DNA from: a virus
Lineage: Duplodnaviria; Heunggongvirae; Uroviricota; Caudoviricetes
Virus record (IMG/VR): IMGVR_UViG_2684622579_000002
Strand: one strand, 5' to 3'
Length of the DNA stretch: 16,029 bases
Part shown: positions 556-16,029 of the stretch, piece after piece
Numbering within the stretch: position 1 is the first letter of the stretch
How the letters are laid out: each line of letters opens with the position of its first letter
Made by a program: the position numbers and the translations under genes
The notes under the pieces: model-generated
What the model saw: the letters and a program-made list of their open reading frames with translations, nothing else
What the model was told of the DNA's origin: nothing
Database searches by the model: none

Positions 556-596
556 AACCGTAGCACGTCGTATGCAAGAAGATCGTGCTGCGGTTT
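555..596. repeat. Hairpin repeat copy A (about 13 bp stem with one G-T wobble, 16-nt loop tcgtatgcaagaagat) between convergent pin and GIY-YIG genes
   Basis: Positions 558-580 (ccgtagcacgtcgtatgcaagaa) match 1582-1605 (ccgtagccacgtcgtatgcaagaa) except for one inserted base. Stem arms 555-567 and 584-596 are complementary. Confidence 0.6.
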
Positions 597-615
597 ATGC
601 TTATCACTTAAAGAC

Positions 616-1485
<870 letters not shown>

Positions 1486-1580
1486 CTAAGCCTTTGAATT
1501 TACATAGTACAAAAAAGATACTTTTCCTCATAATGTGAATTAATTTTATGTTTCGTTTGATGATTGGACCGGTCTCGAAA

Positions 1581-1614
1581 CCCGTAGCCACGTCGTATGC
1601 AAGAACGTGCTACG
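1581..1614. repeat. Hairpin repeat copy B (9 bp stem with one bulge, 13-nt loop tcgtatgcaagaa) upstream of the GIY-YIG gene
   Basis: Direct-orientation near-identical copy of the element at 555-596; stem arms 1584-1592 and 1606-1613. Confidence 0.6.
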
Positions 1615-1885
1615 ACTGGCTGGTGAACTTCCGATAGTGCGAGTATTGAATGATTTCCAACTGTTATCGATTTTGCGTATTTTTTGCATGAGAGGATTTT
1701 TACCTCCTCCCGCCGATCCTCCATGGCTTTACGCCTGTGTCTCTGGTCTGCTATGTGCCAATAGCGGACATTGCTAACATTATCTAATACACAACAAAAA
1801 ATGTCAGTCTATATGATATCATCTACTGTCTTTTAAATTCCCCACCTGTCTCAGTTATTAGTGTTAGATAAGGAATCAAAAAATT

Positions 1886-2560
1886 ATGAGAGCATATAAA
1901 TTTAGGTCGGCTTCTCAAATAGCATTTACCCTAGATATAATTTTTAATCGTAGGCTTTTTTGCTCTGACTGGAAAATGTTGAATGACCCAATGGAAGGGA
2001 TGTTTGTTTTCTCTCATCAAACATCTGATGGTTACGACTATAAAAAAGAAATTCAGCAGATAATAGAAGAAAAGAAACGGCTTAAGGTTTGTTCTCTTTC
2101 AGCTACATATGAGTCTCATTTACTTTGGGCTCACTATGCTGGGGGGTTTGATGGTTGCGCTATCGAAATTGAAATCCCAGACAATCATCACAGTATTAAA
2201 CAAATTGAATATAGAGGTGTATTTGCAAATTTAGCAATGCCCAATATTTATAGTCCTGATGAACTTGCTAACCAAGTTTTATCCTCTAAATATCGAGAAT
2301 GGGAATACGAACAGGAAGTTAGGATTTTGCAAACGAATGAGTGGTTTTACTTAGATAAACCAGTTCGACGAGTAATAGCAGGGCATAGAATGCCTTCGGC
2401 ATTATTTGAAGCCATGAATATAATATGCAACTCGATGGGGATTGAATTTTGCCGTACTGGAATTGGTGATGAGGGGATTGATGCCGATTATGTTGAGCCC
2501 TCAAAAATTCTAACGCCGAATAATCATCTTGACTGGGATGTACTAAAAAATGACCGATGA
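1886..2560 (+). CDS. Hypothetical protein, DUF2971-like (224 aa)
   Basis: ORF with ATG at 1886, AGGA 11 nt upstream, AT-rich codon usage. LWAHYAGG and EWEYEQEVRIL motifs resemble what I recall of the DUF2971 family; this is unverified. Confidence 0.5.
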   Translation: MRAYKFRSASQIAFTLDIIFNRRLFCSDWKMLNDPMEGMFVFSHQTSDGYDYKKEIQQIIEEKKRLKVCSLSATYESHLLWAHYAGGFDGCAIEIEIPDNHHSIKQIEYRGVFANLAMPNIYSPDELANQVLSSKYREWEYEQEVRILQTNEWFYLDKPVRRVIAGHRMPSALFEAMNIICNSMGIEFCRTGIGDEGIDADYVEPSKILTPNNHLDWDVLKNDR

Positions 2561-2699
2561 ATTAGAGATTTATATGGTTAGCAGAGTGTAAGGCTCAAGA
2601 TTCCCACGCTCAATAACCAATTGATTGTGAATAACTTTCACCCACAATTGCTCGATATGAAACTATGAGCAATTGTGATGTAAATGTATGCAACAGGTT

Positions 2700-3326
2700 T
2701 TATATCTTATTCCCAAGTATTAACTGTGTTGAGCGAGCCATAATTCTAAATATAAATGGCATACCCTCTGTTAGCTCATCGAGTGTTGGCGTTCGCCTGC
2801 TTGCTTCCAAAAGTATTGAACGCAGAAACTCAACTTCTGGATCACATGCAATTTCTTCATCCAATGCCTTAAGTTTGCCTTTTATTTCTTTTATCTCTGA
2901 CAAACTATGGTTGAGGGTTTCACTTCCCTTTATTTCTGAAAGTATACGTCTTTCATGGTAATTAAGTTGCTCACGGAAAAACAATGCCATACTGGCTTTC
3001 TTTACTAAAAGCTCCATTTCCTTTCTTTTTTTCTCAAGATCTAAGATTTCTTCTTGAGTTGAGTTTTTATTCGTTTTTAGGGATTTTAACTCACTAATAG
3101 TCTTAGTTATGGACTCTAATGAAGTGGCCTCAAGCTGTTCTAAATCTGACTGTGTAATAGCAGGCTTCGACAATGAATAGATGCAAACAATAGTCATTAC
3201 AAAACCTACAATAGCCATCCCATTTAAATAAATTGGCAGTTCCAATTTATTTAAATACGCAAATAAACCACCTATAATGAAATAAGCCATACTTAACAAA
3301 ACCAGTACAGTACAAAACCGCCTCAT
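2700..3326 (-). CDS. Membrane-anchored coiled-coil protein (208 aa), function unknown
   Basis: Two N-terminal hydrophobic segments (VLVLLSMAYFIIGGLFAYL and GMAIVGFVMTIVCIYSL) followed by a charged heptad-like region (EEILDLEKKRKEMELLVKK). GAGG SD 6 nt upstream of the ATG at 3324-3326. Confidence 0.55.
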   Translation of the reverse strand: MRRFCTVLVLLSMAYFIIGGLFAYLNKLELPIYLNGMAIVGFVMTIVCIYSLSKPAITQSDLEQLEATSLESITKTISELKSLKTNKNSTQEEILDLEKKRKEMELLVKKASMALFFREQLNYHERRILSEIKGSETLNHSLSEIKEIKGKLKALDEEIACDPEVEFLRSILLEASRRTPTLDELTEGMPFIFRIMARSTQLILGNKI

Positions 3327-3754
3327 TCTAACCTCGTTAAATTTTTTTAGTTTATATGGTTAACCTACTAAAACCTTGTTCCCAGCATTTCGAGCAGGAA
3401 CTTTACGTTCCTCACTTGAGCAAGCTACTGCGGCAACACAATATCTTAACTTAATAAACTTAACTAGCAAGCTACTCATAACGTCCGCTCTTCGCTCATA
3501 ACAGACATAAACTTCAGTTATGGCATAAAGGTATGCATGCTGGGTGGGGAAAGTATGAAGGAAAAGAAGACTGCTGCGCCGTTTGTCGTCACGTTTATCT
3601 TCATTGGCTATGCAAGTCGTAATACAAGGTGGGACAAAACTGAGACACATAAGGCCTCGCAATGGCTTGCAAGGCTTTACATGTTTTGATGTAGTGGGAC
3701 GTGTGAGCGCAGTGTTGATGGGGTAATGCTTTGAATTAGAAGCGGATTCTTATA

Positions 3755-3800
3755 ATTCGTAATGCGAAGGTCGTAGGTTCGACTCCTATTATCGGCACCA
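3755..3800 (+). other. 46-nt 3' fragment of a tRNA-Thr(CGU)-like gene (anticodon loop through CCA) lacking the 5' half: probable att core or direct repeat at an island junction
   Basis: attcgtaatgcgaaggtcgtaggttcgactcctattatcggcacca contains an anticodon loop with CGT, a T-arm GGTTCGACTCC and an acceptor 3' strand TATCGGC-A-CCA. No complementary GCCGATA acceptor 5' strand is present upstream, so this is not an intact tRNA. Confidence 0.7.
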
Positions 3801-3964
3801 TCACCTAGTTTTCCCAAGTCAACCCACATCAACAAAATCATTTAAAAACATATATATTACGTTATTTTCATACGTTTGAGGTCAACCCTTGTCTCTTGAA
3901 ATCAACACGCGGTTGGGGGCACAATCAGGGGCATGTTCTGTTCGGTCTAGGAAATGTGCCCCCA

Positions 3965-5155
3965 ATGATGCTGAATGCCCGCAAGGTTGAAGCTGCGAAA
4001 GGAAAAGAGAAGAGCTACAAGCTGTTTGATGGAGGTGGCCTATACCTTCAGGTCGAACCTAATGGCTCGCGTTACTGGCGTATGAAATACCGTTTTGCTG
4101 GTAAAGAGAAACGATTGTCCTTTGGTGTTTATCCAACAGTCACACTTGCTGATGCCAGACAAAAACGAGAAGACGCGAAGAAACTACTCGCAGCAGGTGA
4201 AGATCCCGGCGAAGTCAAAAAAGCCAAAAAGCAGGCTTTAAATGCAGCGATTGAGACACTTAACCCATTCAGAGAAGTGGCGTTAGAGTGGCACAAAATG
4301 AAATCACCCAAATGGTCTGAGGGCTATGCTTCCGACATCATTGAGGCATTCGAGAAAGACATTTTCCCGCATATTGGGCACAGACCTATAGCTGATATTC
4401 AGCCCCTTGAACTGCTTGAAGTTCTGAGGTTGATAGAAGCTCGAGGCGCTATGGAGAAAGCGAAGAAAGTCCGTCAGCGATGCGGTGAAGTTTTTCGCTA
4501 TGCCATCGTAACGGGTAGGGCAATCTACAATCCGGCACCGGATCTTGCCAGTGCGATGCAAGGACATGAAGCAGTCCACTATCCATTCCTCAAAGCCAAC
4601 GAACTACCGGAGTTCTTTAATGCCCTTAATTCTTATTCAGGAAGTCCAATTGTATTGTTGGGGGCGCATTTACTTATCCTGACAGGTCTACGAACTGGAG
4701 AACTACGAGCAGGTGAGTGGCGAGAGGTGGATTTTGATAATGCGGTGTGGGAGATCCCAAAAGAACGTATGAAAATGCGTAGGAGCCATATTGTCCCGTT
4801 GTCAAAACAAGCATTATCCCATCTCAAAAGTTTGAAAGAACTAACTGGGAACTACCCGCTGATGTTCCCTGGACGCAACGATCCTAGCAAATTTATGAGT
4901 GAAGCAAGCATTAATCAGGTGTTTAAACGTATTGGATATGCAGGGCGTGTTACGGGGCATGGTTTCAGGCATACGATGAGTACAATCCTACATGAGAAAG
5001 GATTTAACAGCGCTTGGATTGAAACCCAGCTTGCTCATTCGGACAAAAACTCTATTCGTGGAATTTATAACCATGCCCAATATCTCGAAGGGAGAAGAGA
5101 AATGATGCAATGGTATGCTAATTATTTATCTGAGCTAATTGGTACTCATAAATGA
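3965..5155 (+). CDS. int: Tyrosine recombinase, P4-type integrase (about 396 aa)
   Basis: N-terminal MLNARKVEAAKGKEKSYKLFDGGGLYLQV is the characteristic P4-integrase N-terminal arm; C-terminal catalytic region has HGFRHTMST and a downstream tyrosine context (IRGIYNHAQY). Immediately follows the tRNA 3' fragment. Start placed at ATG 3965/3968 rather than the TTG at 3896 given in the ORF track. Confidence 0.9.
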   Translation: MMLNARKVEAAKGKEKSYKLFDGGGLYLQVEPNGSRYWRMKYRFAGKEKRLSFGVYPTVTLADARQKREDAKKLLAAGEDPGEVKKAKKQALNAAIETLNPFREVALEWHKMKSPKWSEGYASDIIEAFEKDIFPHIGHRPIADIQPLELLEVLRLIEARGAMEKAKKVRQRCGEVFRYAIVTGRAIYNPAPDLASAMQGHEAVHYPFLKANELPEFFNALNSYSGSPIVLLGAHLLILTGLRTGELRAGEWREVDFDNAVWEIPKERMKMRRSHIVPLSKQALSHLKSLKELTGNYPLMFPGRNDPSKFMSEASINQVFKRIGYAGRVTGHGFRHTMSTILHEKGFNSAWIETQLAHSDKNSIRGIYNHAQYLEGRREMMQWYANYLSELIGTHK

Positions 5156-5976
5156 ATATTTTAAAAATTAATAATACTGATTCTCTGCTCAGAGATTACT
5201 ACCAGTTGGATGAAGCTTCAGAAAAAATTGGTTGTAGTGAAAAGGATATACTCTGGTTTGCCAGAGAACGAGATGTAGAGCTATGCATGGAATTCCATGA
5301 TGATGAGTATGATGTTTCATGTGGTTTGAAGATTGATGGTCAAATGGATGAGTTCTTATCTAATCTGAAATATTTACCACGAGATAGAAATGGCAATATT
5401 ATGTTGTCAGACTTAAGTTCTATAAGAATCCCTGATGAAGATAATTTAATTGATAAAAATGGTTTTATTCGATGTTTCATATCCGGTTTATGGGCTGTTG
5501 ATTATGAATATAAAGATCTGTTAGTTAAGCATGAGGGGCAACCGGATTCTTGGCCTATTCATTTTCTACTGGCGGGTACGCCTAATATAAATTGTAAGGT
5601 AATTCTTTATGTAAATTATGATGAAAAAGAAAATTATTATCTTTTTGAGGTTTTGTGGATTACAAAGGTACAGATTCAAAAATTCATTGATATAGTCTTA
5701 TGCGAACAAAAGCGGATAAAAAACGCCAATAAATATAAATCACAATCTGAGGCGCAAAAACAAAAACATGCTGTTCCTCGAGCTGAAATACTCATGGCTA
5801 TTATTTCGCTCTATCATCGTGATATGAGGCTAAGAAGAGAGAGTCCAGCAGCGATAGCTGATTATCTTTTTCAACATGCCAGTGAGTTCTGGCCTAAGAC
5901 CGGAGAACCGCCTTTGAGCTATGATACTGTTGTTAGTTTGCTACGTAGTTGCATGAAAAACATTAAGTTTAACTAA
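5152..5976 (+). CDS. Hypothetical protein (274 aa), AT-rich, translationally coupled to the integrase
   Basis: ATGA overlap with the integrase stop (ATG 5152, TGA 5153-5155); AT-rich codon usage unlike the GC-rich replication module; no motif I can assign. Confidence 0.6.
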   Translation: MNILKINNTDSLLRDYYQLDEASEKIGCSEKDILWFARERDVELCMEFHDDEYDVSCGLKIDGQMDEFLSNLKYLPRDRNGNIMLSDLSSIRIPDEDNLIDKNGFIRCFISGLWAVDYEYKDLLVKHEGQPDSWPIHFLLAGTPNINCKVILYVNYDEKENYYLFEVLWITKVQIQKFIDIVLCEQKRIKNANKYKSQSEAQKQKHAVPRAEILMAIISLYHRDMRLRRESPAAIADYLFQHASEFWPKTGEPPLSYDTVVSLLRSCMKNIKFN

Positions 5977-6424: not shown

Positions 6425-6598
6425 TTAGCCTTTAGGGTCAATCCCGCGTGATTGGAGTTCTTTGCGTAAAATTCTTTTAATCCAAGTTGCCAACGCGCTA
6501 TCTCCATCTTTGCGCATTTCGTTTTCGAGTTGCAACCTAAAATCGTCGGTAAGACGCATTTGGAATGGTGGAGAACGTTTCTCTTGTGGTGTTGACAT
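6425..6598 (-). CDS. Arc/MetJ-type ribbon-helix-helix DNA-binding protein (57 aa), absent from the supplied ORF track
   Basis: Hand-translated minus-strand ORF MSTPQEKRSPPFQMRLTDDFRLQLENEMRKDGDSALATWIKRILRKELQSRGIDPKG; the PPFQMRL segment resembles the Arc N-terminal beta-strand motif (PQFNLR). Start codon overlaps a palindromic operator. Confidence 0.6.
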   Translation of the reverse strand: MSTPQEKRSPPFQMRLTDDFRLQLENEMRKDGDSALATWIKRILRKELQSRGIDPKG

Positions 6599-6638
6599 GG
6601 TAATTACCCTAGAATATGATGACTACATGGTAATTACC
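6595..6638. promoter_or_regulatory. Two copies of the 14-bp repeat ACATGGTAATTACC, each containing the perfect palindrome GGTAATTACC, 30 bp apart: putative operators
   Basis: Palindromes at 6599-6608 and 6629-6638; the first overlaps the start codon of the Arc-like gene, the second lies in its promoter region, within the divergent intergenic region 6599-6729. Confidence 0.55.
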
Positions 6639-6666
6639 ATTGTAAGTATAGTTCGCTTGTAAAAGC

Positions 6667-6701
6667 AATGCCCGATTGTGCGGGAACACAAATCGGGCAT
6701 T
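6667..6701. promoter_or_regulatory. 14-bp-stem inverted repeat (AATGCCCGATTGTG / CACAAATCGGGCATT, loop cgggaa) in the leader of the replication operon
   Basis: Arms 6667-6680 and 6687-6701 are complementary with one bulge; located 29 nt upstream of ATG 6730; no U-tract follows. Confidence 0.45.
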
Positions 6702-6729
6702 TAACCAACCGTTATAAGAGGTAACGAAG

Positions 6730-6906
6730 ATGGCTAAACAGAAGTGTACCTGGTTATTTGCGGCGATCAACCGCAGTCAACGCAATGCCCGTCCTGTGAT
6801 GTTAAGGATCACCGCAGATAACGAGCGGTCAGCGCGGCGCAGACTTGCCCCGGACTATGTACTGAGCTTTGCCGGGCGCATTCCCTGCGGAGGTGAACAT
6901 GCGTAA
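6730..6906 (+). CDS. Small protein (58 aa), first gene of the replication operon; possibly Icd-like
   Basis: Hand-translated MAKQKCTWLFAAINRSQRNARPVMLRITADNERSARRRLAPDYVLSFAGRIPCGGEHA; AAGAGG SD 8 nt upstream; stop overlaps the next gene start (ATGCGTAA). Family assignment is from memory and weak. Confidence 0.5.
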   Translation: MAKQKCTWLFAAINRSQRNARPVMLRITADNERSARRRLAPDYVLSFAGRIPCGGEHA

Positions 6907-7258
6907 TTATCCGCACCCCGGCGAACGCTGGCAGCATGAACGTGGCTGGACGGTCACGATTATCCGATTAATAGAAGCCTCGCCCTCTGTGGCGCTGGTT
7001 AATCCTGAATTCAGCTGTGAAGTGCTGATACGTCATGACAGCGACAACCAGCTTTCTTCCTGCCCTCTGGCATGGTTTGAACAGCGGTATACGCGCCTGT
7101 TTGATGTACCGCTCTTTAAGCCTGCACCAGCTCCTGCAGGCGGTAGTGGTTCCGGCCCGCTGACACTGCATCCGTCTGTGCTATTTATCCGCTGGCGGGA
7201 GCGTAGCATATGGCGTTCTGCTGAGCCTGACGACGGTCACTATTCAAAGTTTCTCTGA
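6899..7258 (+). CDS. Hypothetical protein (120 aa)
   Basis: ATG at 6899 preceded by GGAGGT; GC-rich codon usage consistent with neighbours; the ORF track extended it to an upstream alternative start at 6869. Confidence 0.5.
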   Translation: MRNYPHPGERWQHERGWTVTIIRLIEASPSVALVNPEFSCEVLIRHDSDNQLSSCPLAWFEQRYTRLFDVPLFKPAPAPAGGSGSGPLTLHPSVLFIRWRERSIWRSAEPDDGHYSKFL

Positions 7259-7289
7259 CAAAATACCGCTGAAAACGGAGTAATCCACG

Positions 7290-7574
7290 ATGAATATTTC
7301 AAACGGGCACAACGGTGCTCAGGGCCACACTTTGCCTGAAAAACACAATACCGGTGCTTTTGCCTATGGGTTGTCAGAGGACAGTTTCGGAAAGCTGACC
7401 CGCGCAAGAAATGCCTGCGACATGCTCCAGCTTCTCTTTTCTGAATACCCGTCTCAGGCCGGAGCACTGGACGCTGGCTGTGCGCATGGTGTCGCCGCGC
7501 TGATGGAGTACCTGCTGGCAGATTTGACGGATATTGCACACAGTTGCGCACTGATTGAAGGAGGTGCCAGATGA
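7290..7574 (+). CDS. Hypothetical protein (94 aa)
   Basis: ATG 7290 with GGAG 8 nt upstream; stop overlaps the next start. Confidence 0.5.
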   Translation: MNISNGHNGAQGHTLPEKHNTGAFAYGLSEDSFGKLTRARNACDMLQLLFSEYPSQAGALDAGCAHGVAALMEYLLADLTDIAHSCALIEGGAR

Positions 7575-7954
7575 ACCAGCCGCAGGTTTCCATTTTCCCG
7601 GCAGAAATGACCACCGCGCTTTACCGGCGGGCTATTGCTTCAGCATGGCGGCAGAAAATGCTGAACGAAACTGGCAGTGATCAGTATGGTCCGCACAGCC
7701 TGACGGTGGAGCGTATTGAAATGGCCATTGCGCTGCATATCGAGTGCGTACTGATTAACGAGTACGGCGAAGTGCAGGGCGCCGCTACCGCGCTGGCACT
7801 GCTGACTGACATGCTGGAGCCGTCACTGCTGACCGCGCCGCCGGTACTGACCGCGCGCGGCTGTGAAGTGATGGCGGAGATGTACCGCACGCTTCCGGCG
7901 GCCTTTGATGACTTCTGCAGTACCGGTGTGACGTTGTATGAGGGGGAAGTATGA
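7571..7954 (+). CDS. Hypothetical protein (127 aa)
   Basis: ATG 7571 with GGAGGT SD; ATGA overlaps at both ends indicate translational coupling into the primase gene. Confidence 0.55.
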   Translation: MNQPQVSIFPAEMTTALYRRAIASAWRQKMLNETGSDQYGPHSLTVERIEMAIALHIECVLINEYGEVQGAATALALLTDMLEPSLLTAPPVLTARGCEVMAEMYRTLPAAFDDFCSTGVTLYEGEV

Positions 7955-10623
7955 CAATACGGACGGTTACGCAGATTTCAGCCGCCGCACGGGGGAAATG
8001 GCCCGTTATTCTGCAGATGCTGCGTATTGATGTACCTGAAAACGGCAGGCACGGTCCCTGCCCGAAATGTGGGGGCAAGGATCGTTTTCGCCTTGATGAC
8101 CTTGACGGGCGCGGGACGTGGATCTGCAGCCAGTGTGGCAATGGTGACGGTCTGGATCTGGTTAAGCTCGTAACCGGTTACAGCGTCAGAAAGGCTGCGC
8201 AGGAGGTGGCGCAGGTGCTTAATGTGCCGGATGTGCAGGAACTGCCTGTTAAGCCTGCCAGACAAAAAGCCCCTAAACGAGACATGGGTCTTACCGTGGC
8301 GGCGCTGATGAAAGAGAGCCACACGGGAGAAAGCGCCTATCTGACAGGAAAAGGGTTCGCCGGATACCCGGCCTCTCTGACCGGAAGCGTGCAGCATATC
8401 AGCGGTAAGGATTTTCCTGCCGGTTCCCTGCTGTTACCACTCACGACCAACACCGGAGCCGTGACCGGTGCACAGCTTATCGCCCCGACGGGTGAAAAAA
8501 GCATACTGCCCGGCAGCACGATGAAAGGCGCGTTTGTGTCGCTCAGCCCGTTACCGTCTGAACCACCGGTACAGGTGGTGATTACCGAAGGTTACGCTAC
8601 GGCGCTGACGGTAAGCCAGCTCACTGCCGGATGCGTAGTGGCTGCCATATCTGCGGGCAACCTGCCCAATGTGGCGCAGTCGCTGCGGGCACGCTGGCCT
8701 GAGGTAAAAATTATCATCGCCGGTGATAACGATTTTCAGGACGGGGGTGAGAATCCCGGCAGAGCCTTTGCTGAACGGGCGGCAAAAGCTGTTGGCGGCT
8801 GGATGACGCTGCCACCAGGAGAGATTAAGGCTGACTGGAATGACTTTCATCGGGAGCACGGTATTACCCGTGCCCGTGAAGCCTTTCGCAACGGTCTGGT
8901 ACTGTGCGGGGAAGGCCGCACGCAACTGCCGCACGGGTTCCGTCTTACCCAGGAATATCTCTGGTATGAAAAGCAGGTACAGCGCAACGGTGAGACGGAG
9001 ATCCAGAACGTCAAAATATGCAGCCCGCTGCGCGTGACGGCAATTACCTGCGATGCCGATGGCGGTAACTTCGGACGACTGCTGGAATGGGAAGATACGT
9101 GGGGTGAGTGTCGCCGCTGGGCGATGCCAATGGAAATGCTGAGCGGCAGTGGTGAGGAACTGCGCCGGGTACTGCTGGTTAACGGGCTGTCTTATATCAG
9201 CACCACCGGTGAGGCACGCGCACGCCTGATGGAATATATCTCACTGTGTAAACCGGAACGCCGCGTGACCTGCGTCAGTCGTACTGGCTGGCATGGTCAG
9301 GTTTACGTCCTGCAGGATGAGGTCAGCGGTGAAGGTGCAGAGGGTGTCATTCTCCAGACCACTTCCGTGCAGGGGCGTGATTTCCGCGTGTCGGGCACAA
9401 CAGAGGAATGGCGGGAGCATGTATCCCGCTACTGTACCGGCAACTCCCGCGTGGCATTTGCTGTCAGCCTGGCCTTTGCTGCACCACTGTTACGGCTGGT
9501 TGGTATGGACGGCGGCGGCTACCACCTCAAAGGGGAATCGACAGACGGTAAGACCACCACCATGAAAGCGGCAACCTCCGTCTGCGGCGGGCCTGACTAC
9601 TGGCAGACATGGCGGGCCACCGGCAACGCGCTGGAGGGATGCGCCAGCCGCCGTAACGATGCCGCCATGATGCTTGATGAGATCCGGGAAGTTGACGGAC
9701 GCGAGGCAGGCAATATCGCCTACATGCTGGCAAACGGTCAGGGCAAGGGCCGTGCCGGTACGGACGGTGAGCTGCGTACCCGTAAGCAGTGGCGCCTGTT
9801 GTTCTTTTCAACTGGCGAGTTGTCTCTGACCGAACATGCGGCAAAGGCCGGTGAGCGTACTTTTGCCGGGATGGAAGTCAGGATGATCCAGATCCCCAGC
9901 GATTCCGGGAAGTTTGGCGTTTTTGAGGAGCTGCACGGCTTCGACAGCGGCAAGGCTCTGGCAGAGCATCTTGAATGGGCCACGTCCTGCTACTACGGTT
10001 CGCCGTTCCGGGAGTGGCTGAAAGCACTGACCGCTGATCTTAACGGACTAACGGCACAGGCAAAATCGCTGATGAAGGAATATGCTGCCGCCCTGACTCC
10101 GAAAGATGCAGGCAATCAGGTGGGCCGGGCTGTGAACCGCTTTGCACTGGTGGCGATGGCAGGTGAACTGGCAACCCGTCTGGGTATCACCGGCTGGCCT
10201 GAGGGTGAAGCACTGCGGGCAACCCGCGTCTGCCTGAACGCATGGCTGAAAGATCGCGGGCACACCGCCAATCAGGAAGATATCGCCGCACTGGAGCAGG
10301 TTCGCAGTTTCTTTACCGCGAATCAGTACAGCCGCTTTGCAGACTGGTATGACGAGCGCAACCGCCCCGGCAATATGGTGGGCTGGCGCAGGGTGGAGAA
10401 AGGCAGTACCGCGCAGGGCACGGAAGCTGTCACTACGTTCTATGTCATGCCGTCCGGCTGGAAAGAAATCTGCAGGGGATTTGACCCGCGCAAGGTGGCG
10501 CGTCTGTGCGCAGATCGTGGATACCTGCTGCCCTCCACTGATGGCAAACTCCAGACAACCATTCGCCCGCCAGAGATGAATCCCCGCAGGCTCTATGTCT
10601 TCAACAGCGAGGTGCCGGGTTAA
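7951..10623 (+). CDS. P4-alpha-like primase-helicase (890 aa): zinc ribbon, TOPRIM and C-terminal P-loop NTPase domains
   Basis: N-terminal CPKCGG...CSQCG zinc-binding motif; TOPRIM-like VVITEGYATALTV and IIIAGDNDFQD; Walker A-like GESTDGKTT. GAGGGGGA SD upstream of ATG 7951. Confidence 0.9.
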   Translation: MTIRTVTQISAAARGKWPVILQMLRIDVPENGRHGPCPKCGGKDRFRLDDLDGRGTWICSQCGNGDGLDLVKLVTGYSVRKAAQEVAQVLNVPDVQELPVKPARQKAPKRDMGLTVAALMKESHTGESAYLTGKGFAGYPASLTGSVQHISGKDFPAGSLLLPLTTNTGAVTGAQLIAPTGEKSILPGSTMKGAFVSLSPLPSEPPVQVVITEGYATALTVSQLTAGCVVAAISAGNLPNVAQSLRARWPEVKIIIAGDNDFQDGGENPGRAFAERAAKAVGGWMTLPPGEIKADWNDFHREHGITRAREAFRNGLVLCGEGRTQLPHGFRLTQEYLWYEKQVQRNGETEIQNVKICSPLRVTAITCDADGGNFGRLLEWEDTWGECRRWAMPMEMLSGSGEELRRVLLVNGLSYISTTGEARARLMEYISLCKPERRVTCVSRTGWHGQVYVLQDEVSGEGAEGVILQTTSVQGRDFRVSGTTEEWREHVSRYCTGNSRVAFAVSLAFAAPLLRLVGMDGGGYHLKGESTDGKTTTMKAATSVCGGPDYWQTWRATGNALEGCASRRNDAAMMLDEIREVDGREAGNIAYMLANGQGKGRAGTDGELRTRKQWRLLFFSTGELSLTEHAAKAGERTFAGMEVRMIQIPSDSGKFGVFEELHGFDSGKALAEHLEWATSCYYGSPFREWLKALTADLNGLTAQAKSLMKEYAAALTPKDAGNQVGRAVNRFALVAMAGELATRLGITGWPEGEALRATRVCLNAWLKDRGHTANQEDIAALEQVRSFFTANQYSRFADWYDERNRPGNMVGWRRVEKGSTAQGTEAVTTFYVMPSGWKEICRGFDPRKVARLCADRGYLLPSTDGKLQTTIRPPEMNPRRLYVFNSEVPG

Positions 10624-10649
10624 GGCTTTGCGTGAGTCTTATTTATTAA

Positions 10650-10845
10650 GGGTAACAGGTGAAACAGGTGGAACAACCGTATTTTACAGGGCTGAATCTG
10701 TTCCACCTTCTGAAATAGTGAGGTGGAACAGATGTAACGCCAGCCAATCCGCTGTTCCACCTTGTTACCCGCGATGTTCCACCGGTGCAGTGTATATAAA
10801 TGCTTTATAAAACAAATGGGTAACACATGTTTCACCTGTTACACC
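10650..10845. repeat. Iteron cluster: five copies of the 9-mer GGTGGAACA/TGTTCCACC in alternating orientation, bounded by a 15/16-bp inverted repeat, with an adjacent AT-rich tract
   Basis: GGTGGAACA at 10667-10675 and 10722-10730; TGTTCCACC at 10699-10707, 10753-10761 and 10775-10783; the forward-reverse pair recurs with 55-bp periodicity. Outer inverted repeat GGTAACAGGTGAAACA (10651-10666) versus TGTTTCACCTGTTACA (10828-10843). AT-rich tract gtgtatataaatgctttataaaacaaatg at about 10790-10817. Confidence 0.65.
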
Positions 10846-10933
10846 GCATCAGGGACATAAAGCAGACTGAAACAGAGGGCATTTTTATCTGGCTGGCTTT
10901 CATAGCCACGTCTGAATAACCGCAAGCGCCCGT

Positions 10934-10951
10934 TGTACCAGCCACCACACA
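10934..10951 (+). promoter_or_regulatory. TGT-N12-ACA dyad (TGTACCAGCCACCACACA), candidate Ogr/Delta-dependent late promoter element for the sid/psu/ogr operon
   Basis: The motif centre lies about 80 bp upstream of ATG 11024, compatible with the roughly -55 placement of this element in P2/P4 late promoters. Confidence 0.4.
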
Positions 10952-11023
10952 CTGAGCACCGATAGTGTGCTTGTGTCAGCCACGACACAATTGACGTAAC
11001 GAACCAACCCGACAGGAGAAGTC

Positions 11024-11767
11024 ATGAACAACACCGCAGTGAATAACAACCTTTCCACTTTTCCGGCTGTAACGCAGCGGGCACTGGAAACCATGAACAC
11101 AGCCAGAAACGCATGGCTTGAAGCACGTCGTCAGCAGAAAGCGGCAGCGGATAATATTGCGACAATCCGCCAGCGTCGCGCTGAAATGGAAGCCACGACG
11201 AACACACTGAATGAGGAGTGGCGCACGCTGTTTCGTGAAAGTCAGGGCGTGGTCTCAAAGGAAATGAAAAAACTGCGCACGGAAATTGCGCTGGGACGAG
11301 AAACTCTTGAGGATTTTGATGAGCTGCTGGAGGCTCAGGAAAGCGAAAATGCACTTTTGCCGCAGAAAGCTGCGGAATTAGCCGGAAAGTATATCCACGC
11401 GCATAACATCCTTGTGGATATTCGCGCAAAACAAATCTGGGAAGATTTTATGCAGTCGCATGGAAAAGCGCTTATTCAGACGCTGAGCCTGCTTAAATCC
11501 ACAATGGGCCGGGAAGCCAGTGCCGTTGTGGGTGTGGTGAATTCAGTTAATGACCCGGACACAGTGCTGAAAGACTTTATTCATAAACATATCACCAGAC
11601 CGGCTCTGGCTAACGATGCGATGCCTGAGCAGGACCCGGTGTTTAAACTGGCGGGAGTTGCCCCGGATTATGCGGCGCGTCTGGATTTCAGTAATCAACT
11701 CTCTCCGGCAGCTATGCATAAAATTAAGGTTCGTCAGGAACTTGCTGAGAAGGAGAAAGCAGTATGA
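11024..11767 (+). CDS. Sid/Psu-family protein (247 aa); by size and position probably a Sid-like capsid size-determination scaffold
   Basis: GGAG SD 5 nt upstream; shares NAWLEARRQQKAAAD and DFMQSHGKAL motifs with the downstream Psu-like protein; ATGA coupling to the next gene. Confidence 0.6.
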   Translation: MNNTAVNNNLSTFPAVTQRALETMNTARNAWLEARRQQKAAADNIATIRQRRAEMEATTNTLNEEWRTLFRESQGVVSKEMKKLRTEIALGRETLEDFDELLEAQESENALLPQKAAELAGKYIHAHNILVDIRAKQIWEDFMQSHGKALIQTLSLLKSTMGREASAVVGVVNSVNDPDTVLKDFIHKHITRPALANDAMPEQDPVFKLAGVAPDYAARLDFSNQLSPAAMHKIKVRQELAEKEKAV

Positions 11768-12315
11768 CGGCCCGAGGCACGCCTGACCAGGCACTTACCA
11801 GTTTTCGGAATGCCCGTATTCTGTGGGCCGGACATAATGAGAGCCGAAAAGCCGTTGAACAACAGATAACATCTCTCCTCGCTGCCACAGAAAAACCAGC
11901 AGATTATGCCCGACAGCTCGAATTACTGCGGGAACGTCTGGATGTGCTGAAATGGCAAATTAACTGTGCTGCGCGCGAATGCATTTACTCGCAGCATTTA
12001 CTGATGGAGGCCTGCACAGAAGCCGCTCTCAGCAATTTTATGCAGGCGAATGGGGCAGCCCTGACATCTGCACTGGCTCCGTTCCTGAAGGGGCGCGGAG
12101 GGGTTGACGTTGCGTCCCGTATATTACGCAGTGCTCTGGTTCGCCAGCTGGCAATAACACCGCCTGAAATTGCCGGGGATTATCGTGAGATCCTGGATGA
12201 ATCCGGTTTGATGCCTGACCCCGGGATGATTCGTGATTGCCAGGGTTCTTACACCCCGGCACAACATCTGCGTTTTCAGCAACGCCTGAATGACATTAAC
12301 GATATACAGGAGTGA
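11764..12315 (+). CDS. psu: Psu-like polarity suppression / capsid decoration protein (183 aa)
   Basis: LKWQINCAARECIYSQH and FMQANGAALTSALAPFLKG match my recollection of P4 Psu (VRKWQVNQAAGRYI and FMQQHGTALAAALAP); similar length to P4 Psu. Confidence 0.65.
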   Translation: MTARGTPDQALTSFRNARILWAGHNESRKAVEQQITSLLAATEKPADYARQLELLRERLDVLKWQINCAARECIYSQHLLMEACTEAALSNFMQANGAALTSALAPFLKGRGGVDVASRILRSALVRQLAITPPEIAGDYREILDESGLMPDPGMIRDCQGSYTPAQHLRFQQRLNDINDIQE

Positions 12316-12320
12316 TATTA

Positions 12321-12593
12321 ATGGCACTTAAATGTCCGGAATGCGGTACAGTTGCACACGCCAGAACAGCAGCCTATGAAGCTCCGTCAGTTAAACGCTC
12401 GTGGTATCAGTGCCAGAATCTGGAATGTTCCTGCACATTTACGGCACTGGAGAGTGTGGATAAGATAATCATGAAACCCCGGCGCAATGAACAGCTATCA
12501 GACAAAGCACAATCCCCGGAAAAACAACAGCAAACGCTCAATCGCTATGGCTCCGCGTCAAAACTGTCAAGCCGTCAGCAGATTCCTGTCTGA
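12321..12593 (+). CDS. ogr: Ogr/Delta-family zinc-finger late transcription activator (90 aa)
   Basis: CPECG...HART...YQCQNLECSCTF matches the Cys4 pattern of P2 Ogr (CPLCQ...HART...HQCQNVNCSATF); AGGAG SD 8 nt upstream of ATG 12321. The ORF track started it at the GTG at 12312. Confidence 0.8.
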   Translation: MALKCPECGTVAHARTAAYEAPSVKRSWYQCQNLECSCTFTALESVDKIIMKPRRNEQLSDKAQSPEKQQQTLNRYGSASKLSSRQQIPV

Positions 12594-12613
12594 TTAGAAA
12601 AAAACGCCCACGT

Positions 12614-12640
12614 AATCCCGGTCGAGTACCGGGATTTTTA
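12614..12640 (+). terminator. Rho-independent terminator after the ogr-like gene
   Basis: aatcccggt / accgggatt 9-bp stem with a 5-nt loop, followed by a T-run (gggattttt) 20 nt after the stop codon. Confidence 0.65.
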
Positions 12641-13050
12641 ACACCTTTTCCCTGGCTGGCCTGAGAGCGCATGAGTGCATGTCTATGGCGCATGAAAATG
12701 CATGAGCCTTATGCACCTTTTTTGAGGCGAAAACCTTTGTGTGGTGGTATCTGAGACGATTTATGGCATGCATGAAAACCAGTCTGTTAAGCGAAGCGGG
12801 CAGGCGTGCGGGGCTGCCCGCGATAGCACTGAAATCAACAGGTAAAACTATTTTTTATTAGTAGTGTAAACTGGGAGCGAACGGACTCTGTCATGCTGTA
12901 TCATCCTGTAATGATCAATCTCACTGGTGTCTGTATAGATGTCAACCAGTTTCGACGGCTGTGTCTAACTTAAAATTAGAGCTTAATCAAGTTTTTCCTC
13001 GAGAATACTTTTAAAAGACAATGAGTTATGAGAAAGTGGAGGCTGTCACG

Positions 13051-13079
13051 TTGGTCATATGTAACACTCCACGTAATCT
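13051..13079 (+). promoter_or_regulatory. Putative sigma70-type promoter (TTGGTC - 17 nt - TAATCT) for the three-gene operon
   Basis: -35-like TTGGTC 13051-13056, 17-nt spacer, -10-like TAATCT 13074-13079, about 44 nt upstream of ATG 13123. Identified by eye only. Confidence 0.3.
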
Positions 13080-13122
13080 TAATCGCTTTGTAAATGTTGA
13101 AGTTAATTAATAGGGAAAACTG

Positions 13123-14082
13123 ATGCTAACCAGGGCTGAAAATATAAGAAAAATCACAAGCTATTTAGCTATTCTCTCAAGAGAGGTTGAGATTAGTGCC
13201 TCCCTCAATCTTTTGGATATCAACGTTCAAGCGGAATCTTTTTATAGAGATTTCTTAAACTTATGTTATGGATATAATTTAAGAAATACCAATAGTGAAG
13301 AGCAAAACTACCAAGCAATAGATCTTGCTGATGAAGATCGGAAGATTGCTATACAAGTAACTTCAACTTCTGACTTGGGAAAAATTAAGAATACAGTTGA
13401 TGGATTTATAAAAAGTAAGCAATATGAAAAATATGATAGACTAATTGTACTGAATATAACTGAAAAGAAAAAGCACAGATTGAAAGAGTATGGAATAGCC
13501 GGGTGCTATGTAATTAATATCAAAGATGATGTATGGGATTATAAGGATATAATTAGAAAGATAAACGATTTGAATGATTGTGATATATCAACAATATGCT
13601 CATTTTTGGAACGTAATATTAATACTAAAGCTGCTGATAAACCGCCGAAAGAAGTCACAACTATGTTTGCGATGATTGAATTATTGAGTGATGATGCTCA
13701 CCCATTGGCAGGAAATGGATTTATTGAAGAGCCTAATCCTGAAAATAAAATATATAAAAGATTTTCAGATTATTCAGAGCGGTTGATTGGCTTATATACT
13801 GGGTTAGCTCCATTATATAGTGGGATATTTAAGTCAATAAAAGAACAGAGCGATATTGGTATCGTAAGGTACCAAAAGATGAGTTTGTATTTAGAGTCAT
13901 TTAGTGATAAGGTCTTAAGAAGCCATGGTGGAGATCCTATCTTGGCGCTTAATTATTTAAAAGAATATTTTTCTAAACAACTGAGCCAGAGAAATGTAGA
14001 TTACGATGAAACAGCTATCAAATTTTTCTTAATTGAGAATTTAATTGCATGTAACGTCTTTCCTAATTCGGAGATTCTTTGA
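13123..14082 (+). CDS. Hypothetical protein (319 aa), putative effector of a three-gene system; N-terminal region possibly SMEK-like
   Basis: AGGGA SD 6 nt upstream; AT-rich codon usage. N-terminal LNLLDINVQAESFYRDFLNLCYGYNL...IAIQVTSTSD resembles what I recall of SMEK-domain proteins of ABC-three-component systems; unverified. TGATG overlap with the next gene. Confidence 0.65.
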   Translation: MLTRAENIRKITSYLAILSREVEISASLNLLDINVQAESFYRDFLNLCYGYNLRNTNSEEQNYQAIDLADEDRKIAIQVTSTSDLGKIKNTVDGFIKSKQYEKYDRLIVLNITEKKKHRLKEYGIAGCYVINIKDDVWDYKDIIRKINDLNDCDISTICSFLERNINTKAADKPPKEVTTMFAMIELLSDDAHPLAGNGFIEEPNPENKIYKRFSDYSERLIGLYTGLAPLYSGIFKSIKEQSDIGIVRYQKMSLYLESFSDKVLRSHGGDPILALNYLKEYFSKQLSQRNVDYDETAIKFFLIENLIACNVFPNSEIL

Positions 14083-14330
14083 TGTTAAGTTTTTTTTCGA
14101 AAGATGAGGATTTGACAAAATCCCCTCCTGTTGTAGGGGCTAAAATTCTTAATTTATTTGACGAAACAAAAAAAGAAAAAATTAGTATTTTCGATTTAGC
14201 AAAAGAATTAAAGAAAAACAACTCTCTAGGAGTGCGTGCAATTTATTTTGGAATGGTCTTTCTTTATACTCTTGATCTTATCGATTTCGATGAGCCATAT
14301 GTGATAAATAAAAATGTTAAGAATAAATAA
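14082..14330 (+). CDS. Small protein (82 aa), putative middle/adaptor component
   Basis: ATG 14082 overlaps the upstream TGA (14080-14082); its 3' end overlaps the ATPase start by 17 nt; AT-rich. Confidence 0.55.
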   Translation: MLSFFSKDEDLTKSPPVVGAKILNLFDETKKEKISIFDLAKELKKNNSLGVRAIYFGMVFLYTLDLIDFDEPYVINKNVKNK

Positions 14331-16029
14331 ACTATATAGCATACCAGAATCTTTTGAGCCAGTAAGCTTTGATAGTGGCATCAATATCATCTTAGGTGAA
14401 AAAGATGTTTCATCTAACAAAACTAATGGAGTGGGTAAAACTCTTTTAATAGAGTTTATTAATTTTTGTTTATTAAAAGAATTTAAGTCGAGTAGAGTTT
14501 CTAAAATTCCTCATTCTGATTTTTCGAAAGACATTTTGATATGCCTTGATTTTAATATTGATAATATTAACATTATATCCCAGCGTTCTATTGGGAAACA
14601 TAATGAGCCAACACTTGTAATAAATGGAAAAACAATAGAGTTTAGTGGATTAGATGATGCGTTATCTCATTTAAGCAATCTTATCTTTAAGAATAGTAAG
14701 GGTATACTTCATCCATCATTTAGAGCGATGCTGGGGCCTCTGATACGCGATGAACGATCTGAATTTAAATCTATTGTTGAGTGCTTCGACACAAAATTAC
14801 ATATACCTGCTGACTATACTCCTCATCTTTATTTGTTAGGTATTGATATTGCTCCCTATAAAGAGGCAAAGATTTTACAACGAGAAATAGATGATTTATC
14901 AACTACAAAAAATAAAATAAAGAGAGATATTGAATTTCTGACGGGAAAAAAAATTAGTTCTGCAAAGGCAGAGGTTAATGATCTTAAATCAAAAGTTGAA
15001 CATATCAGAAACGCTATGGATGCATTTGATAGCGATAGCAGTTATGAACTTATCAAAGATGAAGTAGAAGAATTAGAAAGTTCTTTAGAAGAGTTGCGGA
15101 ATAAAAGAACAATACTTAAGTTAGAGCTTTCAAGAATAAATGCTCTCGTTGGTGAAGTATACATAAATGATGATGAAGTAGTTGAAATTTATAATAAATT
15201 TAAAGTTGGATTAGGTGATGCTATCAAAAAAGAACTTAATGATGTTATTTCATTTAAGAAAAAAATAGATCACTTCCAAAACACTTTGTTAAATACGCGA
15301 AAAGAAACATTACTTTCTGAATTGCGTAAGATATCAGATAAGCTATATACAGTAAATAGACTTTATAAAGAAAAAGCTAGTGTTTTTGAGCAGGCGGGGG
15401 GGTTTAAAAGCCTGAAAATTTTAATAATGACTTATCAGAAAAAGTTAGAGGAGTATTCACAGTTATCTTCATTGCTTAAAAAATTTGAAGATTTCGATTC
15501 TAAATGGAAAGTTAAGAAGTCAGAACGCTCTTCTATGATAATTTCGTTAGATCTTTCTATTATGGATAACGAAAAAACGATTGAATCTTTTGAGGAAACC
15601 ATTTTATCAATCCATGAATATGTTTTTGGAAATAGAAAGTGTTCTTTCGAAATTAAGGCGACAGAGAAGAAAGAAACTATCTCAATGGATTTAAGAATTG
15701 ATGATGACGGTAGTCATAGTAATGAGCGAGAAAAGGTTTTCTTTTATGATTTGGCTCTTTTACTTACAGAAGAAACGTTTCGACGTCACCCTGGATTATT
15801 AATTCATGATAATATTTTTGATGTGGATCAAGATACATTAATTAAAAGCTTGAATTATTTGGCAGAGAAATCCAGTTGCTTAAATGATGCACAATATATT
15901 TTGACGTTAAATAGCGACAAAATTAGTGAAATTGATAAAAGAGATTTGAAACTAGATATTAACTTCTATAAGCGAGCTTCGTTAACTAAAATAAATAGAT
16001 TCCTGGGAAGGCATTATCAAGAAATATAA
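14314..16029 (+). CDS. ABC/SMC-type coiled-coil ATPase (571 aa; the ORF ends exactly at the window edge)
   Basis: N-terminal P-loop region NIILGEKDVSSNKTNGVGKTLLIEF; long charged helical middle (EAKILQREIDDLSTTKNKIKRDIEFL...); C-terminal Walker B-like GLLIHDNIFDVD. TAA at 16027-16029. Confidence 0.8.
   Translation: MLRINKLYSIPESFEPVSFDSGINIILGEKDVSSNKTNGVGKTLLIEFINFCLLKEFKSSRVSKIPHSDFSKDILICLDFNIDNINIISQRSIGKHNEPTLVINGKTIEFSGLDDALSHLSNLIFKNSKGILHPSFRAMLGPLIRDERSEFKSIVECFDTKLHIPADYTPHLYLLGIDIAPYKEAKILQREIDDLSTTKNKIKRDIEFLTGKKISSAKAEVNDLKSKVEHIRNAMDAFDSDSSYELIKDEVEELESSLEELRNKRTILKLELSRINALVGEVYINDDEVVEIYNKFKVGLGDAIKKELNDVISFKKKIDHFQNTLLNTRKETLLSELRKISDKLYTVNRLYKEKASVFEQAGGFKSLKILIMTYQKKLEEYSQLSSLLKKFEDFDSKWKVKKSERSSMIISLDLSIMDNEKTIESFEETILSIHEYVFGNRKCSFEIKATEKKETISMDLRIDDDGSHSNEREKVFFYDLALLLTEETFRRHPGLLIHDNIFDVDQDTLIKSLNYLAEKSSCLNDAQYILTLNSDKISEIDKRDLKLDINFYKRASLTKINRFLGRHYQEI

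Follow-up and report, generated by a model that had tools for sequence, protein, structure and literature searches.

The three-gene operon at positions 13123-16029 of the window (the whole 16,029-nt stretch of viral DNA analysed here) probably encodes a short type II Lamassu system of the ABC-three-component (ABC-3C) kind. The subtype combines a SMEK effector, an MC6 middle component, and a DUF2326 ATPase, and its mode of action is proposed by analogy. The operon forms a 3.4-kb cassette that can be swapped for other cargo; it occupies the defence hotspot of a P4-like satellite whose integration site is tRNA-Thr, and its three genes are strictly co-inherited across phyla. As a sequence finding, this is largely ordinary and would not surprise a specialist. 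It gives a catalogued Lamassu subtype one further allele and one further carrier, a P4-like satellite at tRNA-Thr, and provides an example of cassette exchange at a known hotspot, with ABC-3C and DRT3 exchanged at identical breakpoints. Showing a phenotype for the SMEK subtype, or solving the structure of its complex, would carry the model of sequestration and release over to a second class of nuclease.

Satellite context and cassette layout

The original prediction placed the operon in a P4-like satellite, and Pfam searches confirm this setting. The window contains an integrase (3896-5155), a DUF927/Toprim primase (7951-10623), and two Psu-family genes (11024-12315), which include psu at 11764-12315 (Pfam Psu, 1e-44). 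Together with ogr/delta at 12312-12593 (Pfam Ogr_Delta, 1e-15), psu is among the late genes of the satellite, which border the hotspot; both lie on the plus strand, as do all features described below. The attL core, CTCCTATTATCGGCACCAT, occupies 3782-3800 and corresponds to the 3' end of tRNA-Thr. The same 19-mer recurs as attR at L001 17605-17623, 175 nt past the ATPase stop codon and outside the window.

Conserved satellite DNA extending from delta to the cargo (12594-12822) defines the left boundary of the hotspot and includes a hairpin, a T-run, and cos-proximal-like sequence. The terminator suggested earlier for this stretch is visible by eye as a hairpin and T-run after delta, at about 12613-12640, although a consensus scan did not flag it. 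The suggested cos-like character holds in part: the region shares the loose core AAGCGGGCAGGCGTG-CGGGG with cos-proximal DNA of a canonical P4 cassette, but the P4 19-mer cos was absent at up to three mismatches. Among 5426 complete E. coli genomes, 848 contain positions 12600-12822 and three contain the cargo.

Comparison with sibling satellites at the same chromosomal site corroborates the idea of a slot for variable defence cargo. These siblings carry drt3a/drt3b (DRT3) or another gene in the slot, with identical breakpoints. Homology with the DRT3-carrying siblings stops sharply at 12822 and resumes 175 nt after the ATPase stop. An allele of 66% identity lies between psu and int of a canonical P4 at tRNA-Leu. 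Two different P4-like lineages have captured two diverged alleles.

The cassette begins with a 5' non-coding leader (12823-13122). This stretch is variable, moves together with the operon, and is the presumed site of the promoter. A sigma-70 consensus scan flagged no site in this leader, a repeat search of it returned short chance-level pairs only, and an Rfam scan of the entire window gave no match. An AGGGA sequence is positioned 7 nt upstream of the effector ATG. The three open reading frames are co-directional and overlapping (13123-14082, 14082-14330, and 14314-16029). Read directly, the first junction is TGATG at 14080-14084 and the second is an overlap of 17 nt at 14314-14330, while the ATPase stop codon forms the final three bases of the window. 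GC content is 0.29-0.32 over 13001-16000 (about 30% in the operon) versus 0.50-0.61 over 6501-12500 in the satellite core. Reading frames, overlaps, and GC contrast all agree with the tightly coupled AT-rich operon described at the outset, and the recurrence of the same gene order in other genomes (see below) indicates more than a chance arrangement.

Effector, middle component, and ATPase

The first gene (13123-14082) is lmuA-like and encodes an effector of 319 aa with a SMEK_N nuclease domain followed by a conserved helical C-terminal domain. The original prediction could name no catalytic motif in this protein, a view that is superseded: judging by its profile matches, it carries a SMEK/Mrr-like nuclease domain of the PD-(D/E)xK fold. 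The matches include Pfam SMEK_N (5e-46), NCBIfam SMEK_N (8e-35), and the PADLOC Aga_REase model (3e-41), and RefSeq names the protein "SMEK domain-containing protein". The domain spans residues 10-148 (13150-13566), has a restriction-endonuclease-like fold, and shows homology to an Mrr nuclease domain whose structure has been solved from a short-pAgo system (7.5e-15 with the single sequence, 2e-29 with the profile). The effector has 368 homologs, and those listed keep a length of about 319 aa.

Putative active-site residues are E38 (13234-13236), D67 (13321-13323), Q78-V-T80 (13354-13362), and K87 (13381-13383). Across phyla, E38, Q78, V79, T80, and K87 are invariant in the effector homologs, and D67 is at least 90% conserved. 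The resulting motif is D...QxT with a displaced lysine, in contrast to the canonical D...ExK. Nuclease activity with such a motif is plausible.

The C-terminal domain of the effector (residues ~170-319; 13630-14079) is all-helical, with helices at 176-309 in an AlphaFold2 (AF2) model of moderate confidence, and contains the conserved motifs PNPENKIYKRF and CNVFPN. It always co-occurs with MC6 and DUF2326. In an exhaustive search of 1.84 billion representatives, it appeared only after SMEK_N or alone. We infer that it acts as a coupling or oligomerisation domain. A Pfam scan of 33 effector homologs matched no ABC-3C CTD family in any of them, Foldseek found nothing for this domain in the PDB, and a PDB profile search with the effector family retrieved the Mrr domain only and no solved LmuA structure.

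The lmuC-like middle gene (14082-14330) encodes 82 aa (83 aa if translation starts at 14079), and its start overlaps the lmuA stop within the TGATG. The window copy reaches 3.4e-4 and 21 bits against Pfam MC6, under the cutoff of 27.2, whereas 31 of 32 orthologs match this ABC-3C family at E<=0.01 (best Pfam value, 6e-9). An 82-aa reading frame between effector and ATPase is kept across phyla, and the divergent E. coli allele has a middle gene that RefSeq calls "ABC-three component system middle component 6". Searched against the PDB, the family profile returned nothing meaningful, and solved LmuC was not detected.

The lmuB-like third gene (14314-16029) encodes an ABC/Rad50-type ATPase of 571 aa belonging to the DUF2326/YydD family. 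The P-loop NGVGKT, long coiled-coil middle, and C-terminal LLIHD noted earlier are all found in it: Walker A (KTNGVGKT, residues 36-43) at 14419-14442, the coiled coil at ~14851-15627 (helices 180-438 in the AF2 model), a signature-like DGSHS at 15706-15720, and Walker B (LLIHD, residues 494-498) at 15793-15807. Walker A, Walker B, the D-loop, and the DGSHS..RE motif are invariant in 33 homologs. A CxxC zinc hook was looked for in the ATPase and is absent.

Profile matches of the ATPase comprise Pfam DUF2326 (4e-19) and PADLOC PDC-M68B (1.4e-48), the latter matched by all 33 aligned family members. PADLOC LmuB models match six of the 33 (best 2.8e-7), and the window copy scores only 0.014. The AF2 model (pLDDT 83) shows a head with a long helical middle. 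Its best Foldseek match is YydD (5e-25), followed by Lamassu LmuB (3e-14) and then Rad50/SMC; the type II Lamassu LmuB chains 9uxh_F, 9hqu, and 9hqx fall between 3e-14 and 7e-11. Against PDB sequences, the single sequence gave coiled-coil noise only, and the family profile nothing meaningful, so that solved LmuB is not detected by sequence.

Conservation and relation to known systems

Of 86 sequences examined, among them 78 species-level genome loci spread over many phyla, 83 keep the order and spacing of the triad; in the remaining three, the contig ends too soon upstream for the triad to be judged. In the same 83, a gap of about 200-235 nt between effector and ATPase holds a reading frame of 75-93 aa. 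The co-occurrence in other genomes on which the original prediction turned is therefore present. Neighbourhoods of the triad are unrelated among loci, and most of the 78 species-level loci lie outside satellites. Relatives exist that lack the SMEK domain but retain the C-terminal domain, MC6, and DUF2326, and effector-less forms adjoin other candidate toxins (a HEPN/nucleotidyltransferase protein encoded upstream). In the copy of E. coli VE-T9, the ATPase is annotated as two pieces.

The assignment to an ABC-3C or Lamassu-like triad of effector, small protein, and ATPase, as foreseen, draws on the Pfam families SMEK_N, MC6, and DUF2326 together with the LmuB fold match. As in other ABC-3C systems, an effector and a middle component precede a coiled-coil ABC ATPase; the differences are that the effector C-terminal domain falls outside all Pfam CTD families and that the window middle component scores under the Pfam cutoff. 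The A-C-B order with tight or overlapping junctions, a feature of short type II Lamassu, is present in the operon, and the 571-aa ATPase compares with ~570-600 aa for the short LmuB ATPase of catalogued systems. Two other candidates were rejected. Septu (PtuA/PtuB), to which similarity had been proposed, finds no PADLOC match, and the cassette has no HNH gene. A housekeeping RecF/RecN/SbcC protein with conserved context, named beforehand as the competing reading, disagrees with the rarity of the triad (10 of the 5426 complete E. coli genomes), with the varied neighbourhoods, and with the lack of an NCBIfam equivalog.

The suggestion of a new variant did not hold. SMEK is already catalogued among short-Lamassu effectors (bioRxiv 10.1101/2025.04.02.646746 / PMC12663957), and earlier work cloned and assayed an ortholog carried on P4. 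This system, "Syst.5_LmuBC_SMEK_Lamassu" from a P4 hotspot, was made by synthesis and failed to protect MG1655 from 28 virulent coliphages; its authors, using DefenseFinder, called the genes LmuB and LmuC (bioRxiv 10.64898/2026.02.27.708500). In File S4 of that preprint, the rows for pFD412, which we infer from the plasmid numbering to be Syst.5, are all exactly 1.00. Because these values look like placeholders, "no protection" is taken here from the main text. Syst.5 encodes the same three proteins in the same order, with an N-terminal SMEK domain in the effector and a location in a P4 hotspot. Nevertheless, the window allele is distinct: tblastn identity is 46% for the effector, 62% for the middle protein, and 56% for the ATPase, and DNA identity is ~63-75% over aligned segments. 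Its satellite also belongs to another P4-like lineage, at tRNA-Thr and with int at the opposite prophage end.

Solved Lamassu systems of the Cap4-CTD7-MC3 type (V. cholerae DdmABC; Salmonella LmuACB; PDB 9hqu, 9hqx, 9uxh, 9nyg) share the A-C-B order, the LmuB-like fold, and a nuclease effector with a separate C-terminal domain; Vc-Cap4 likewise lacks a zinc hook. However, none of the three window proteins matches the solved chains by sequence, the nuclease is SMEK/Mrr-like rather than Cap4, and the MC and CTD families differ. Bacillus subtilis YydD belongs to the same DUF2326 ATPase family and is the best structural match, but it has 18% identity to the window ATPase, and its partner in the integrative model PDB 9a6c is YydB, not SMEK. 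The window ATPase also matches the B component of the PADLOC candidate PDC-M68, whereas the effector matches no PDC-M68 model. A literature search on DUF2326, PDC-M68, and YydD/YydB found no functional study, no mention of PDC-M68, and no YydD defence phenotype. SPARDA-type short pAgo systems (SMEK/Mrr-APAZ; Kordia jejudonensis KjAgo) use a homologous SMEK nuclease domain as an immune effector, although the window system has neither APAZ nor Argonaute, and its sensor would be an ABC ATPase complex instead of a guide-loaded pAgo. SMEK-APAZ with KjAgo is reported to have collateral DNase activity, described as weak (PMC12205087).

Proposed mechanism and alternatives

Sequestration, liberation, and oligomerisation of the effector have been described for Lamassu (bioRxiv 10.1101/2025.03.14.643221), and the steps proposed here follow the solved Cap4-type complexes by analogy. 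One effector molecule would be held at its helical C-terminal domain by a pair of ATPase protomers together with the 82-aa middle protein, so that its SMEK nuclease stays an inactive monomer. Release of the effector may follow when aberrant DNA (free ends, hairpins, or an invader's replication intermediates) is bound and ATP drives engagement of the heads. Released effectors could then oligomerise via the C-terminal domain and assemble active nuclease sites. Non-specific DNA cleavage would lead to cell death or arrest before the invader spreads, i.e., abortive infection, and the satellite would gain, since competing phages or plasmids would be kept away from the host and from the satellite alike. 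Since the ATPase and middle-protein profiles miss solved LmuB and LmuC by sequence, the analogy rests on fold and operon logic.

Several observations count against this explanation: the Syst.5 ortholog was negative on 28 phages, the effector C-terminal domain has neither a Pfam CTD nor a structural match, the profiles miss solved LmuB and LmuC, the nuclease motif departs from D...ExK, and the window MC6 scores under the Pfam cutoff. The first invites an alternative in which the same machinery has natural targets other than virulent phages and may act chiefly on plasmids or other mobile elements, or on temperate or helper-type phages with cohesive DNA ends, as part of the competition between satellites and phages. 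Lamassu preprints report anti-plasmid activity and DNA-end sensing, and V. cholerae DdmABC, also active on plasmids, offers a precedent. The cassette directly adjoins cos-proximal DNA of the satellite, which is compatible with this alternative, as is the capture of two diverged alleles by two P4-like lineages. On the other hand, little weight attaches to a negative phage panel obtained with inducible expression in a heterologous host, and the same preprint states that a similar system was anti-phage in other work. Moreover, most of the species-level loci lie outside satellites, so the system is not tied to P4/P2 biology in any obligate way. We regard this alternative as unlikely. In the literature searched, we found no demonstrated target for any SMEK-type Lamassu.

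A further alternative, which we consider rather improbable, treats the clade of SMEK-CTD, MC6, and DUF2326 proteins as a distinct Lamassu branch with its own rules. The core of ATPase, middle component, and C-terminal domain could signal to effectors in trans, or the trigger could be DNA forms of temperate or helper phages, satellites, and plasmids instead of lytic phages. Room for both ideas comes from an effector C-terminal domain that has no detectable relation to solved or Pfam-catalogued CTDs, from its joining only to SMEK_N or to nothing, from the effector-less forms beside other candidate toxins, and from the negative 28-phage result.

SMEK might also be a DNA-binding or otherwise non-catalytic module here, in which case the ATPase complex, or some partner with its gene at another locus, would supply toxicity or defence. 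This view is very unlikely. QxT in place of ExK would suit it, as would the weak activity of KjAgo with SMEK-APAZ and the SMEK-less relatives, whose existence means that the core can persist without this domain. Yet the conservation of E38, D67, Q78, V79, T80, and K87 across phyla argues for a working active site. Variants of the PD-(D/E)xK-type fold with Q for E and a displaced lysine are known to be active, for example, DUF4365 with Q62/K64. Furthermore, the domain is homologous to a nuclease that serves as the effector of a pAgo system, which favors the nuclease reading.

A housekeeping or satellite life-cycle role (Rad50/SbcC-like repair or satellite DNA processing), or a decaying remnant, is hardly credible: the Rad50/SbcC-like ATPase fold and the divided VE-T9 annotation would fit, but the triad is rare in E. 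coli, lacks both a conserved chromosomal context and an Mre11/SbcD-type partner gene, can be exchanged for DRT3 at this position, and retains intact, strongly conserved reading frames.

Anatomy of the triad and its satellite

The three AT-rich genes at the right end of the window form a Lamassu/ABC-three-component (ABC-3C) triad in the cargo slot of a P4-like satellite. HMM searches, with matches to SMEK_N, MC6 and DUF2326, showed the original prediction to be essentially right in this respect; the names type II Lamassu and ABC-3C denote the same kind of system. The co-directional ORFs encode an effector of 319 aa (13123-14082), a middle protein of 82 aa (14082-14330; the ORF listing places its start at TTG 14079), and an ATPase of 571 aa (14314-16029), which ends at the last base of the window. 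Both proposed couplings are present, namely a TGATG overlap at 14080-14084 and a 17-nt overlap at 14314-14330, and the predicted AT-richness holds, with a GC content of 0.29-0.32 across 13001-16000 versus 0.50-0.61 across 6501-12500. The genes upstream confirm the P4-like context: one for a tyrosine integrase (3896-5155), one for a primase with Zn-ribbon, Toprim, and DUF927 domains (7951-10623), a Psu-family pair (11024-11767 and 11764-12315), and one for a zinc-finger protein of the Ogr/Delta type (12312-12593). The late genes at 11024-12593 begin with a 247-aa paralog of the Psu family, which matches Psu weakly and is probably the Sid counterpart, and continue with psu and then delta. Integrase and cargo occupy opposite ends of the prophage. 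The map of P4 differs from this satellite in both late-gene order and integrase placement.

Residues 10-148 of the effector correspond to Pfam SMEK_N (5e-46), and the protein also matches NCBIfam SMEK_N (8e-35) and the PADLOC model for short-pAgo-associated REases (3e-41). Among solved structures, only the "Mrr domain from Kordia jejudonensis Mrr-APAZ pAgo" proved related in sequence (7.5e-15 with the single sequence, 2e-29 with a 33-sequence profile). KjAgo with SMEK-APAZ displays weak collateral DNase activity (PMC12205087). E38, Q78-V79-T80, and K87 do not vary across 33 diverse homologs, and at least 90% of these retain D67; the resulting pattern on the restriction-endonuclease fold is D...QxT with a Lys close by. 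A conserved domain made up entirely of helices spans residues ~170-319 and carries the motifs PNPENKIYKRF and CNVFPN. No Pfam family matched this domain in any of the 33 members, and no solved structure resembling it was found; LmuA C-terminal domains have been described as unlike anything known (10.1101/2025.04.02.646746). Relatives of the effector number 368, and those listed retain its ~319-aa architecture.

For the middle protein, the Pfam match is to MC6 ("ABC-three component system middle component 6"), with an E-value of 3.4e-4 and a score of 21 bits that falls short of the 27.2-bit cutoff; 31 of 32 orthologs from related loci match MC6 at E<=0.01 (best 6e-9). The ATPase belongs to DUF2326 (4e-19), a family that carries the source name YydD, and matches the PADLOC candidate PDC-M68B (1.4e-48). 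Its relatives number more than 1100 at near-constant length, and the motifs KTNGVGK(S/T), RDERSEFKS, DGSHS..RE, LLIHDN, and FDVD are invariant; no CxxC zinc hook was found in the protein. The AF2 model (pLDDT 83) predicts a split ABC head with helices at 180-438. Foldseek ranked the YydD-YydB integrative model first (5e-25) and type II Lamassu LmuB chains second (9uxh_F, 3e-14; 9hqu and 9hqx, 3e-12 to 7e-11), followed by Rad50 and SMC heads, with PARIS AriA far behind. PADLOC LmuB models match six of 33 family members (best 2.8e-7) and the window copy only at 0.014.

Conservation of the triad and relation to known Lamassu systems

Co-occurrence of the three genes in other genomes was borne out in 83 of 86 sequences examined, where an effector homolog of full length immediately precedes the ATPase on the same strand, across a gap of ~200-235 nt containing an ORF of 75-93 aa; the three exceptions have <600 nt of upstream sequence. 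A scan with one genome per species gave 78 loci spanning Proteobacteria, Bacteroidota, Firmicutes, Cyanobacteria, Patescibacteria, Cloacimonadota, Chlorobiota, and others. The order SMEK_N, ~80-aa protein, DUF2326 recurred in unrelated neighborhoods in each of three loci inspected individually, from Rahnella, Desulfobacula, and Kangiella. P4-type neighbors occur at only four loci besides that of the window; the module is therefore self-contained and mobile, with P4 as just one carrier.

The effector C-terminal domain also occurs on its own. An exhaustive search of residues 170-319 against 1.84 billion representatives returned 163 relatives at E<=0.001 in two classes: the SMEK_N form (~310-366 aa, match at ~175-320) and a short form (~170-190 aa, match at ~30-180) that accounts for about 28 of 150 representatives listed. 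In an effector-less relative (L090 3753-7514; L091 809-4570), a 178-aa protein of the short form is followed directly by MC6 and then by a DUF2326 ATPase of 583 aa, and upstream of it are an ORF of 62 aa and a HEPN/nucleotidyltransferase protein of 295 aa. Among the matches listed from this search, the domain was never fused to another effector, and in the loci examined it was never found without MC6 and DUF2326. The short form is probably the published Lamassu clade that has lost its effector domain (10.1101/2025.04.02.646746). That study separates long from short Lamassu by LmuB length (~800 versus ~600 aa) and lists SMEK, HNH, and lipase as short-specific effectors.

The triad is real and belongs to a subtype already catalogued, at a hotspot that is also known. 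The suggestion of a new variant does not stand: an ortholog, Syst.5_LmuBC_SMEK_Lamassu, has already been cloned (bioRxiv 10.64898/2026.02.27.708500). Gene order is the same, and identities to the window proteins are 46% (effector), 62% (middle), and 56% (ATPase). Syst.5 in MG1655 gave no protection against 28 virulent phages, and the same preprint remarks that anti-phage activity was recently shown for a similar system. In its File S4, the rows for pFD412, which by plasmid numbering is the SMEK-Lamassu construct, are all exactly 1.00 and lack columns that other plasmids have; these figures seem to be placeholders, not titres that were measured.

In Salmonella and Vibrio Cap4-type complexes, an LmuB dimer and LmuC sequester the C-terminal oligomerization domain of one LmuA, which is freed by DNA-end binding and ATP-dependent head engagement, forms a cyclic oligomer with nuclease sites, and causes cell death (bioRxiv 10.1101/2025.03.14.643221). 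By analogy, the ATPase dimer and middle protein of the window would hold the effector C-terminal domain, DNA ends with ATP-dependent head engagement would release it, and the freed effector would oligomerize, form nuclease sites, and kill the cell. This logic fits the triad, whose effector has a nuclease domain at its N-terminus and a distinct conserved domain at its C-terminus, and whose ATPase is intact. The anatomy is observed, and the mechanism is carried over by fold and operon logic; no sequence-level link from the triad proteins to solved LmuA, LmuB, or LmuC chains was found.

Cargo exchange and other AT-rich regions

Of 5426 complete E. coli genomes, 848 contain window segment 12600-12822, and three contain the cargo, or ten when a 66%-identical allele is included. 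In strain CD09, the element is flanked by tRNA-Thr (adjoining proA) and a truncated LysR gene (adjoining paoD), with the triad as its final gene set. Sibling elements at this site share ~99% identity as far as window 12822 and once more beginning 175 nt past the ATPase stop, which defines a cassette of ~3.4 kb from 12823 to ~175 nt beyond the window end. The expectation of different cargo at this position proved correct: between identical breakpoints, near-identical satellites carry drt3a/drt3b, encoding antiviral reverse transcriptases (two strains; L086 and L088 6389-9675), or a 398-aa hypothetical gene (L087 6756-7952). The att core CTCCTATTATCGGCACCAT occurs at window 3782-3800 and at 17605-17623 of locus L001, 175 nt past the ATPase stop. 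The 66%-identical allele (L092 8811-11705) is carried by seven complete E. coli genomes and has psu on one side and int on the other, in a canonical P4-type satellite at tRNA-Leu; RefSeq names the middle gene of this allele ABC-3C middle component 6. PMC9122126 describes a P4 hotspot between psu and int, with which this placement agrees. In E. coli VE-T9 (NZ_AP027963.1 3558898-3562326), a 99.8%-identical copy has its ATPase region annotated as two proteins (DUF2326 protein and AAA family ATPase), which suggests a frameshift.

A second AT-rich island (1-3800) lies left of the satellite. Two of its genes are on the minus strand: one encodes a strong PD-T4-3 homolog bearing a GIY-YIG domain (616-1440; PADLOC 2.8e-140), and the other is a 208-aa ORF (2700-3326). 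The island also contains a serine resolvase (1-555) and a PDC-S31/DUF2971 candidate (1886-2560; 3e-82). Of tRNA-Thr, just the 3' portion remains (3755-3800), and ARAGORN detected no tRNA; it therefore seems that both islands lie in tandem at one att site, unlike in CD09 and VG12A2. Furthermore, an AT-rich 274-aa ORF (5152-5976, GC ~0.34) overlaps the integrase stop and had no Pfam or PADLOC match. This region could be a second cargo position of the satellite lineage. The counterpart of the ORF in VG12A2 is disrupted by IS1.
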